From NCBI GenBank assembly GCA_964016885.1, contig OZ024741.1:295368001-295432000 (forward strand): DNA of 64,000 nt, given 5' to 3'. Below are positions 36,883 to 40,285 of this stretch, piece after piece (positions within the stretch are counted from its first letter, which is position 1; each line of letters opens with the position of its first letter). The notes beneath the pieces were generated by a model that was given only the letters and a program-made list of their open reading frames with translations, was not told the DNA's origin and searched no databases. The translations under genes and the position numbers were made by a program. The stretch comes from Eledone cirrhosa (taxonomy: Eukaryota).

Positions 36883-36936
36883 GACCCTGTTGTAGTTCAG
36901 TCTCTAGCAGTTCTTGATACTGAAATTATGATCTGA
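36883..36936 (+). CDS. KCNIP: KChIP alternative last coding exon A (DPVVVQSLAVLDTEIMI*)
   Basis: Acceptor tttcttttgatttatttttgccag, phase 0, in frame with EF-4 exon; peptide aligns with the NCS-family C-terminal helix; TGA at 36934-36936; AATAAA at 36946-36951. Confidence 0.78.
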   Translation, partial: DPVVVQSLAVLDTEIMI

Positions 36937-36945
36937 CCTCAACAA

Positions 36946-36951
36946 AATAAA
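36946..36951 (+). terminator. Candidate polyadenylation signal just after exon A stop
   Basis: AATAAA 10 nt after the TGA; the motif is common in AT-rich DNA, so weak on its own. Confidence 0.3.
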
Positions 36952-37139
36952 TGGTATTTTAAACAGCACAACCTGAAATTAGTTGAACTAGATATTATCT
37001 TTGCCCTCATATAAACCTATTTTTTTAAACACAACTTTAAGCAATTCTAAACCTTTCTTTAACCCTTTAAATACCAACCTATGCATGTGTGTACATCCCT
37101 TTTGCAGATAGAGACTTTCCTACTCATAAAAATAAATTC

Positions 37140-37420
37140 TTCTACACAGGTGAGAGGTGCCGGATACTGTTTTCATTGTTCCATTTTGATTTAAGCTTGT
37201 GTTTTCCATTTTGTCTGAGTTAACATGAGGACCAATACCTTTGGCTGAATATTCAAGACTATGGAGAAGGGTTTCCGCTTGGCTTATTAGATCGGAAAGT
37301 AGTACTAAATCATCTGTGTAATCTGCAACTGTGATTTTTGTGGCAGGATATCTATTACTTCTTTGTGGATGTAGTGTGAATTCATTATCTTTAACATTGC
37401 TCTCAGCTTGAAATATCAAT
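37140..37420 (-). mobile_element. LINE reverse transcriptase fragment
   Basis: ITVADYTDDLVLLSDLISQAETLLHSLEYSAKGIGPHVNSDK (YADD-type motif). Confidence 0.8.
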
Positions 37421-40237
37421 CAATGAAGTGGAAGAAAGTTGAAATATTATAAACATAAATGGAGTGTAACTTATCTATGAGTATATACAGTATAACTTTG
37501 TAAAATCATAATCTTCAATTCTTAAAGAACACTTCTGATATTTTGCATCACAAATTTTGACAAGTGAAATTAAAATAACAGCTCAAGTTTTTATGATCAA
37601 CATTTTTCTGAAAAAGGAGAAATCCCATCAAACAGTATTGCTAATGAATCAGTTTTATGAAGAGTAGAGTGGGTGATCATAGCCATTACTACCATATTTT
37701 GTAGGGAAATTTCTGCTGAAATTGATTTTATTTAGAATTATTTATCATGAAAAATGAATGGAACATTTGAATAATACCTCATTGTCAAGTGTTCCTAACT
37801 GGAAGAATGAATACTCAGAGCAAATTAACATCTAGTGAAAGTTTAAAATACCATCTTACCCTATTTGCATATAAAATTTTTTGGTTCAGAAAACAGAAAC
37901 AGCATACTTAATTCAATTCAGTCTAAATTATAACTATATATAATGTTTTGAAAGGTTACTTTATCCATCCATTCATGTAACTATATATAATGTTTTGAAA
38001 AGTTACTTTGTCAATTCATTTATCAATTCATTCCCTGAAATAAAAGTTGATTTAAATTCTTTCTTCTAATGGTGGCAGATTGGCAGAGCAAAGAACAAAA
38101 TGCCTTGCCATATTTGTTTTTGCTTTCTGCGCTCCGAGTCCAAATCCCACTGAGGTCAATTTTGCTTTTCATCCTTTTGGGATTGATAAAATAAAGTACC
38201 AATCTGAAGTTAGAATGTCGAACAAGATGCCTTGTTCAAATTCCAGTGAGGCCTCCTTTGGTGGTATATTTAATCTGTCACCCAATTGAACACTAGTGCC
38301 TGGTTCTCAGATGCATTTTGTGGCCTCCATTTTGTGACAAACATTCAGATCAGATCTCAAACTTAAGGATATCTCCCTCCTTCTTTCTCTCCTTCCCAGT
38401 TTCATAGGCCCTGAAAAGGGTCACAAGCACTCCCTATCTTTCCTTCACTAAACAGTGACAAAAAGAATTATATTCAACCTAATAGTTCATCTTCACATCA
38501 CTACTCTTAAGGTTAAATCAATTTCAACATTTCTATTTTTCATTTCATTGTATGTATGTTAAGAGTTTATACATACTTTTAATTGTATTTCCCATGAAAT
38601 GTTTAAAAAATAGAAACACAATACTCTATATCCACCTCTACAATTTAATGTCTATATTGATATTTATGCTTTTCAAATCATATCTCTATACATGCTAGAC
38701 ACTATATTTATAATTTTATGCTTCTTTTACTCATGTGAGACAGAAGATGTAACTACATAGAATCTTAACCACAAAAACATAGCCTTAAATATATAAATCC
38801 TACTGCAATCAACTTTGCCTGTGATCCTTTTTGGGGTTGATAAATAAAGTAACAGTGTAGTGCATTGGTAAAATTGTTATAGGATTAGGGTGAAGTCTCT
38901 TTTAGCTCTTTGCGTTCTGTGTTTATCTGAAATATCAATGGTTACACACAGTATTGGCCCTTGAATTTCATTTGGACGTTAGTGGCATGGAGATGGGAAG
39001 TTTGCATGCATTAATGTTGGTGTCACAACAAAATGCACCCAGTAAACTATGTAAAGTGATAAGGATGTTTGGAAGAGCATTCAGCTATAGAAACCATGCC
39101 AAAATATAAAATGTAAGAGTCAAGACATTGTCCTCTGACTTGTTTATTAATGGCCCATGACAACCCATCCAACCCATACCAGTATAAAAAGCTGACATAA
39201 TAGAATGATGACTGCTGGCCTTCCACAAAGTACTTTGCCCAGGTGTGCATCAGAAAAACTCCCCAGGGGAAGATCCATGGTGTCACAAGACTTAAAGAGG
39301 CCCTAGGTAGCACAGAGAACACAATAAAAAGATATCCTTAGCACAGTCGTTATTAGGATTAAAGTTAGGATGAGCTGATATGTTGATAATTACAATAATT
39401 ATCAGCTATGTTAAATACTACCAGTTGGTAGATACAAAATAAAAATAAAAATACTCCAAAAACTGACTTTTTAATTATTTAGAATAATTATAGGTGAGAT
39501 TCATAATTAATCATTTCAAGAACAAGAAAAGGTTGCAACTATTTACAATTACAGAATCTGAATTGTTTTAAATTATGAAACAGCACTCTTGAAACTATTG
39601 AATATATCTGCTATAGGCTTTCAACAAATTTTTAAAGTTGTAAAACTGAAACTTTAAATATATCTATATATAATAAATTCAACACAAATCATCAAAAATG
39701 TAATTATAACAAGCTCACAAATGTTTTATCAAACATTTACAATTATTTTAACCCTTTTGATAACTATCCACCTGAAACTGCCCCTAGTTTTACAATGAGA
39801 AATTTATTTTACTAGACCTTTCCAAATTCTTGAGTGGTGTCTTTCATTAGATATATATTAATGAAAGGATTACGTCTATTATAATAGAAGTAACTATAAA
39901 ACATTCTTAATCCTTTCGTTACTGTATTTATAAGGAAATATACTATCTTTCAATTAATTAATGCAGCATTTTGAAAGATTTATTCAAATGATTAATTATT
40001 TCGTTTCTAATATATTAACTTAAAATATTGTTCTTGTATAATATCATGCTGGAAGATATAGATTTATTGAGGAATTGTTTGTAATGGGTGGTTTCTTTAT
40101 AGAACCAAGGTTGATTCGATTCATAATAATTTGCTTATATTTACAGTGATATTAAGGTAGCATTAAATTATTAAAATCTGCGTCTACATGTCTATATATA
40201 AAAACAATGAAAATTTTCAACATCTCTTCTTCAACAG

Positions 40238-40285
40238 GATGAAAACATCACCAAAGGCATGGCCATATTCGATACAGTTCTTTGA
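40238..40285 (+). CDS. KCNIP: KChIP alternative last coding exon B (DENITKGMAIFDTVL*), canonical KChIP-type C-terminus
   Basis: Acceptor catctcttcttcaacag, phase 0; resembles vertebrate KChIP DENIMRSMQLFENVI*; TGA at 40283-40285. Confidence 0.92.
   Translation, partial: DENITKGMAIFDTVL

Follow-up and report, generated by a model that had tools for sequence, protein, structure and literature searches.

The KChIP1-4 proteins of mammals (KCNIP1-4) consist of four EF-hands followed by a last helix, H10, and occur with many alternative N-termini. Two human forms attributed to Decher et al. 2004, KChIP2e and KChIP2f, reportedly have an altered C-terminus and change Kv4.3 inactivation and recovery; we assume that their tails are not paralogous copies of an H10 exon, unlike the two tails described below. 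Passages of a review cite that work for opposite effects of isoforms from one gene. According to passages of PMC3973911, mammalian KChIPs combine variable N-termini with a common C-terminal core of seven exons. Here, we analyzed a KChIP gene in a 64,000-nucleotide stretch of the octopus Eledone cirrhosa (assembly GCA_964016885.1, contig OZ024741.1, positions 295,368,001 to 295,432,000 of the forward strand; G000:C2:295368001-295432000 of a 3.0 Gb genome), hereafter the window. The gene has the EF-hands, H10 and N-terminal variety of its mammalian counterparts; in the octopus gene H10 would vary as well, through two last exons that we call A and B.

Isoforms with the same core and the same two tails are found in RefSeq for Octopus sinensis (XP_036365582.1, XP_036365583.1) and O. 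bimaculoides (XP_052830173.1, XP_052830174.1), and the window exons match them exactly, although the RefSeq entries are automatic gene models. The nemertean Lineus longissimus also joins one core to two helix-type tails (isoform X4, XP_064630264.1, versus X7/X8, XP_064630267.1 and XP_064630271.1), the second of which resembles A in Leu8, Leu11 and a C-terminal extension but lacks Pro2. Neither a duplicated H10 exon nor a cephalopod KChIP was the subject of any paper that our literature search returned, although few subscription papers were covered and the cephalopod query was swamped; judged by title, none of the mollusc papers listed dealt with a mollusc KChIP. Judged from the sequences compared, the splice switch appears to be real and conserved. 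It is already annotated, with both isoforms present in public databases, and the swap to an NCS-1 helix suggested in the original prediction is overstated.

Exons A and B of the KChIP gene

The EF-4 exon and the two exons that may follow it are as follows (window coordinates):

34332..34394, + strand: EF-4 exon KMDLNKDGVISLEEFMDTCRT, with a phase-0 GTAAGT donor common to A and B
36883..36936, + strand: coding part of exon A, the derived H10 helix DPVVVQSLAVLDTEIMI and TGA; acceptor TTTTTGCCAG/GAC at 36883
40238..40285, + strand: coding part of exon B, the ancestral mollusc H10 helix DENITKGMAIFDTVL and TGA; acceptor CTTCAACAG/GAT at 40238

Re-reading the sequence reproduced what had been claimed for these exons, namely the phase-0 donor after 34394 (ACA/GTAAGT), the acceptors at 36883 and 40238, and two peptides each ending in TGA. 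The pyrimidine tracts of acceptors A and B rank at the 98.9th and 96.5th percentiles of the 1567 YAG sites in the window, inside the range of the other five acceptors of the gene (86-99.7). Using a profile of 104 distinct KChIP tails, from which A was left out, we scanned the + strand for open 13-codon frames preceded by AG, 1416 in all; the two best were B, at 40.0 bits, and A, at 22.3 bits, the third frame scored -3.4 bits, and no third H10-like exon emerged among these frames. That the gene contains two such exons is confirmed and is not a chance finding. A and B are homologous, lie in tandem, share their phase and a single donor, and have their own stop codons, as is characteristic of tandemly duplicated last exons. 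Since they share just 4/15 residues and 17/45 bases, the duplication would be old and visible only at the protein level.

Reads from three runs of one sample, genomic-DNA-like in character, possibly the assembly's own source and not independent of it, covered all 30 bins of 36450-40800. The differences listed for them, a single substitution and an insertion of 1 base, fall outside the coding frames. The contigs built from these three runs continued across the introns with no joint at either acceptor, the joints that did occur lying in repeats. No RNA run was listed for 36883-40800, a result without bearing on expression. A 43-bp minisatellite of 10 copies occupies 36020-36442, ~440 bases upstream of acceptor A.

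The rest of the core is encoded upstream, by exons including the following:

23985..24054, + strand: core exon ECPTG...FFPQG, second half of EF-1
26069..26139, + strand: core exon DSSNY...VNFE, first half of EF-2
31892..32104, + strand: core exon EFVMG...DRVFS, exit helix of EF-2, EF-3 and entry helix of EF-4

The first core exon lies ~65 kb upstream of the window, and the KChIP exons here span >100 kb. By sequence and predicted fold the gene is a KChIP, not an NCS-1, in agreement with the original prediction. The window exons are identical to KChIP proteins of O. sinensis and O. bimaculoides; the largest (31892..32104; 100% identity to Octopus KChIP) finds KChIP1 as its best PDB match (E 7e-27). 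A PDB phmmer search with the A-ending Octopus protein placed 12 KChIP sequences (E 8e-82 to 7e-74, KChIP4 at 8e-82) ahead of NCS-1 (3e-57), and the window's own exon gave the same ranking, KChIP before NCS-1. AlphaFold models of the two isoforms (predicted local distance difference test, pLDDT, 82.7 and 84.4) adopt the four EF-hand fold with a helical H10 in both (residues 193-206 and 193-205), and their top Foldseek matches are 7UKH and 1S1E.

Conservation and origin of the two tails

Both tails recur on identical cores in related species. In our protein set, 23 proteins have the octopod core, 18 ending in A and five in B, a ratio that reflects how models are enumerated and not expression. 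One identical core carries either tail in RefSeq models of O. sinensis (P0005/P0123) and of O. bimaculoides (P0136/P0135); the sequences of P0150 and P0146 part at residue 193. The A peptide is intact and identical in the window genome and both Octopus species. Cuttlefish-type cores are found in 11 proteins, of which ten have the B tail and the remaining one, P0152, terminates in DPNVVESLAALDTELLI. This whole protein of 222 residues sits on a contig of 1078 nucleotides, which most likely derives from spliced RNA, given the >100 kb over which its exons are spread here. Its core is identical to that of an Acanthosepion pharaonis protein (P0147) at 173/173 positions and to the octopod core at 167/173, and its tail equals A in length and matches it at 12/17 residues.

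The conservation of A's frame in relatives, on which the original prediction had made its case depend, is therefore found in this in-frame orthologue on a cuttlefish-identical core. Between the octopod and cuttlefish types, 5/17 residues of A are changed and none of B; length, Pro2, Leu8, Leu11 and the stretch L-D-T-E of A are kept in both. A likely predates the octopus-cuttlefish split, and it looks as though it has been selected as a peptide. The exact B peptide ends 110 of the stored proteins, including those of oyster, scallop and abalone; because it is identical in these, octopods and cuttlefish, B is the ancestral, pan-mollusc exon. The proposal of two isoforms from one gene is strengthened in so far as both tails occur in public Octopus gene models and A has an orthologue in cuttlefish-type sequence. 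It is hardly credible that exon A is a defunct copy or an artefact of gene prediction: the RefSeq XP models are indeed predictions, but an identical intact peptide is kept in the window genome and in two Octopus species, and the diverged orthologue stays in frame on an intron-free contig.

How widely such pairs occur was assessed among the members listed for each protein cluster, at most 15 (e.g., 15 of 50 and 15 of 47). The set contains 192 distinct cores with EF-4; several tails were attached to 17 of them, and in three of these 17, octopod, cuttlefish-type and L. longissimus, the tails are two homologous, clearly diverged helices (DKSITESMAMFDTVL versus DEALRDSLETLDTVLCSS in L. longissimus). 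The other 14 look like species point differences, read-through or unrelated tails, or length variants. A second helix tail was not found in the gastropod, bivalve or chiton proteins listed, a search of proteins only. Arthropod proteins offered no identical core with two paralogous helix tails, the differing insect tails belonging to different cores and species, and a duplicated H10 exon was absent from every vertebrate-type core in the protein set. Many L. longissimus isoforms (P0027, P0223-P0232) also have 14 residues inserted between EF-4 and H10 (NILENEKINQEANP), a third way to vary the hinge between the two.

The original prediction likened the A helix to that of NCS-1/frequenin, with which it is homologous, and two NCS-1-like genes of the same genome were available for comparison:

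G000:C1:406998691-407086480, + strand: NCS-1-like gene
G000:C5:95467345-95519679, - strand: NCS-1-like gene

One of the two has a tail of the D-[PS]-W-I-V-Q-A-L-S type, which other molluscs, a brachiopod and amphioxus have too, and the other a frequenin-type tail. Over its whole length, the A tail scores +14.1 to +15.4 bits towards KChIP over NCS-1, on a scale whose leave-one-out medians are +37 for KChIP tails and -31 for NCS tails. Our first NCS-1 class (28 tails) was picked by a motif at columns 7-8 and was thus circular; the result was unchanged with classes set by search origin (32 NCS-1 tails; +14.1) and without those columns (+9.6). The lean towards NCS-1 is confined to the start of the helix: columns 1-6 of octopod A score -7.7 bits, below every one of the 104 KChIP tails (lowest -5.4), and columns 7-13 score +21.8 bits towards KChIP. 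Pro2, Val5 and Gln6 occur in 22, 23 and 22 of 28 NCS-1 tails and in 3, 8 and 5 of 104 KChIP tails; with Leu8, also shared with most NCS-1 tails, they are the only NCS-like residues of A, and Gln6 is Glu in the cuttlefish-type copy. Ser7, Leu11 and Thr13 are KChIP-type, each occurring in 0/28 NCS-1 tails. After its own orthologue, the tails nearest to A are two from tick KChIPs, with NCS-1 tails close behind (38 versus 36 BLOSUM points).

Hence, of the claim that A is an NCS-1-type helix, the lean of the first six residues stands, but the tail as a whole is KChIP by 14-15 bits and both its second half and its intron position are KChIP-type. That the A isoform gains NCS-1-like targets through such a helix is quite improbable. 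The extreme score of columns 1-6 and the residues behind it speak for this idea, as does the role of H10 in shaping target choice in NCS-1, described in passages of PMC10732572. However, the cuttlefish-type copy scores just -2.0 in columns 1-6, the DNA of A resembles octopus frequenin no more than that of B does (20/45 versus 23/45 bases identical), and the rest of the groove is that of a KChIP. In both octopus NCS-1 genes (2/2), EF-4 and H10 share one exon, whereas A lies behind a separate phase-0 acceptor, at the position specific to KChIP. This intron position and the tail score led us to reject an origin of A by capture from NCS-1. As the NCS-1 genes have no intron at this place, A is most likely a tandem duplicate, a diverged copy of the KChIP gene's own last exon; the exon duplication first proposed is thus a likely origin, by the homology of the tails and their common phase and intron position.

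Elsewhere in the genome, the large KChIP exon recurs, together with its acceptor, as a frameshifted copy (G000:C5:74619615-74619765, - strand, loci L017/L037) of 74% DNA identity over 236 bases; no further KChIP exon lies within the 30 kb examined around it, and it is likely an orphan pseudo-exon.

H10, Kv4 and possible consequences of the switch

In solved KChIP structures, as presented in passages of two papers (PMC6104694, PMC7866805), H10 lines a hydrophobic groove, and binding of the Kv4 N-terminus makes it swing outwards by ~40 degrees, which bears out the earlier statement that H10 gates the groove. Phe252 of KChIP3 is described there as a pocket residue needed for stability, its Ala mutant aggregating (passages of PMC7866805). 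Passages of other papers portray the H10 of NCS-1 as competing from within the protein with some targets while assisting others (PMC10732572), and report that KChIP also grips a C-terminal segment of Kv4, H10 not being named in those passages (PMC8566240). The genome contains a Kv4 gene encoding the conserved N-terminal helix, with the N-terminal motif PF11601 above cut-off at G000:C12:45209629.

Compared to B, the A helix has a more hydrophobic, proline-capped start, Leu in place of Met8 and Phe11, and an end two residues longer. Leu202 of A aligns with Phe252 of KChIP3 (offset 50), a position occupied by Phe in 84/104 KChIP tails. By root-mean-square deviation, structures with H10 inserted are matched better by the A model than by the B model (1S1E, 2.1 versus 2.6; 2JUL, 2.8 versus 3.6; 5AAN, 2.7 versus 3.2) and full-channel complexes less well (7UKH, 2.4 versus 1.7; 7W6S, 2.1 versus 1.5; 7E83, 2.6 versus 1.8). 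This is a weak hint that A may close the groove more readily than B.

We consider it probable, though by no means certain, that two isoforms with one body and different H10 helices tune the gating or delivery of Kv4 (Shal) differently. Splicing of the EF-4 exon to A or to B would yield two calcium sensors with a common body, A arising when the proximal acceptor and a proximal poly(A) site are chosen and B, the default mollusc form, when A is skipped. The Kv4 N-terminus can bind only once H10 has left the hydrophobic groove; A would therefore alter the affinity or calcium dependence of this step, and the A-type current would then differ in inactivation, recovery or surface delivery.

Several observations weigh against this reading. 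The structural comparison consists of one model each with unequal aligned lengths, and confidence is lower at the end of A (block pLDDT 74 and 49 versus 85 and 65). Leu is found at position 8 in 20/104 and at position 11 in 14/104 of the KChIP tails (e.g., tick and crab), so the change at these two positions may be mild. Only 1/11 cuttlefish-type proteins ends in A, with one contig versus 28 for B, although contigs cannot rank expression and three members of one cluster are outside those listed. Use of both exons is read from RefSeq XP models, which are automatic predictions, and from intron-free contigs of relatives.

A different consequence of the switch would lie at the very end of the protein. 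Class I PDZ ligands are free C-terminal sequences of the form [ST]-x-hydrophobic. B, ending in D-T-V-L, fits this pattern, which is lost in A (E-I-M-I) and its cuttlefish-type counterpart (E-L-L-I); the B tail is a likely PDZ ligand, which A removes. It is rather unlikely, however, that the switch mainly toggles such a scaffold-binding motif, by which the isoforms would anchor Kv4 complexes at different sites. In its favor, a terminal [ST]-x-[LIVF] is found in 64/74 tails of fifteen residues that lack the vertebrate pattern, compared to 1/16 vertebrate-pattern tails, Ser and Thr exchange at -2 with the -1 position free in those tails, and the second Lineus tail and two unnamed similar tails also run past T-V-L. 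A nevertheless keeps its Thr though this is no longer at -2, where vertebrates have Asn, and since Ser, Thr and Asn can each cap a helix, the pattern may have a structural cause. Extensions also occur in tick and crustacean KChIPs, and passages of the review PMC3973911 assign a PDZ-binding motif to Kv4.2, not to KChIP.

Distinctly unlikely, in our estimation, is a broader version, in which the H10 switch dates back to early lophotrochozoans, coleoids and nemerteans having retained it and shelled molluscs having either lost it or carrying it unannotated, with one choice resetting both groove gate and PDZ ligand. Two hints point this way: A keeps a non-mollusc Ser7 (Gly in mollusc B tails) encoded by TCT, where a single-step reversion from GGC should have given AGY, and the second Lineus tail makes the same changes. 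If true, coleoid neurons would get a second A-type channel complex, differently anchored and gated, from a single KChIP gene.

The choice of last exon may also act on the mRNA, and the following signals bear on this:

36946..37136, + strand: two candidate AATAAA signals for an A-terminated mRNA, at 36946 and 37131
37147..37155, + strand: consensus donor CAG/GTGAGA (37149/37150) in the putative 3' untranslated region of A, which could join A to B
40389..40394, + strand: candidate ATTAAA signal after exon B

With nine AATAAA between A and B versus 5.4 expected, the two at 36946 and 37131 are weak evidence. We regard it as very improbable that the peptide difference is near neutral and the mRNA is what matters, A supplying another 3' untranslated region or forming a stop-carrying cassette spliced from 37149 to B. 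In the cassette version, the stop would precede the junction by 213 nucleotides and could trigger decay. The consensus donor suits this account, as does the change of A, but not B, between octopod and cuttlefish types. Yet the donor may be incidental, as it lies inside a dispersed repeat (37077-37160) that matches 15 other genomic places at 76-87%, and the retained length, Pro2, Leu8, Leu11 and L-D-T-E of A argue for selection on the peptide.

To return to the favored reading, differential tuning of Kv4 by two H10 helices, KChIP diversity is usually called N-terminal, on a fixed core, and here the groove-gating helix would vary as a clean module of 15-17 residues, apparently retained throughout coleoids. 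The switch would be a natural experiment on the role of H10 in Kv4 gating and localization, and it may be one origin of diverse firing among cephalopod neurons. Since splicing of this kind is widespread and databases already contain the two forms, the surprise is limited.

Other variable parts of the gene

In octopod and cuttlefish-type KChIP proteins (P0005-P0152), the first core exon follows at least eight alternative N-termini, several of them with cuttlefish-type counterparts; one starts with Met-Gly and could be myristoylated. The core itself has an optional exon:

9108..9128, + strand: optional 21-nucleotide microexon (SIAGRTM) with AG/GT ends, between the first core exon and the EF-1 exon

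Some Octopus RefSeq isoforms carry this microexon and others do not. Its seven residues follow YRGFKQ and precede ECPTG, within the EF-1 region of the N-lobe; they read SIAGRTM in octopods and SIAGRTT in cuttlefish-type proteins, and are thus conserved across coleoids. Between 16318 and 18663, inside a KChIP intron, we noted by eye, from open reading frame translations, retroelement-like fragments with a GIY-YIG-type endonuclease (Penelope-like), present as two copies in opposite orientation.

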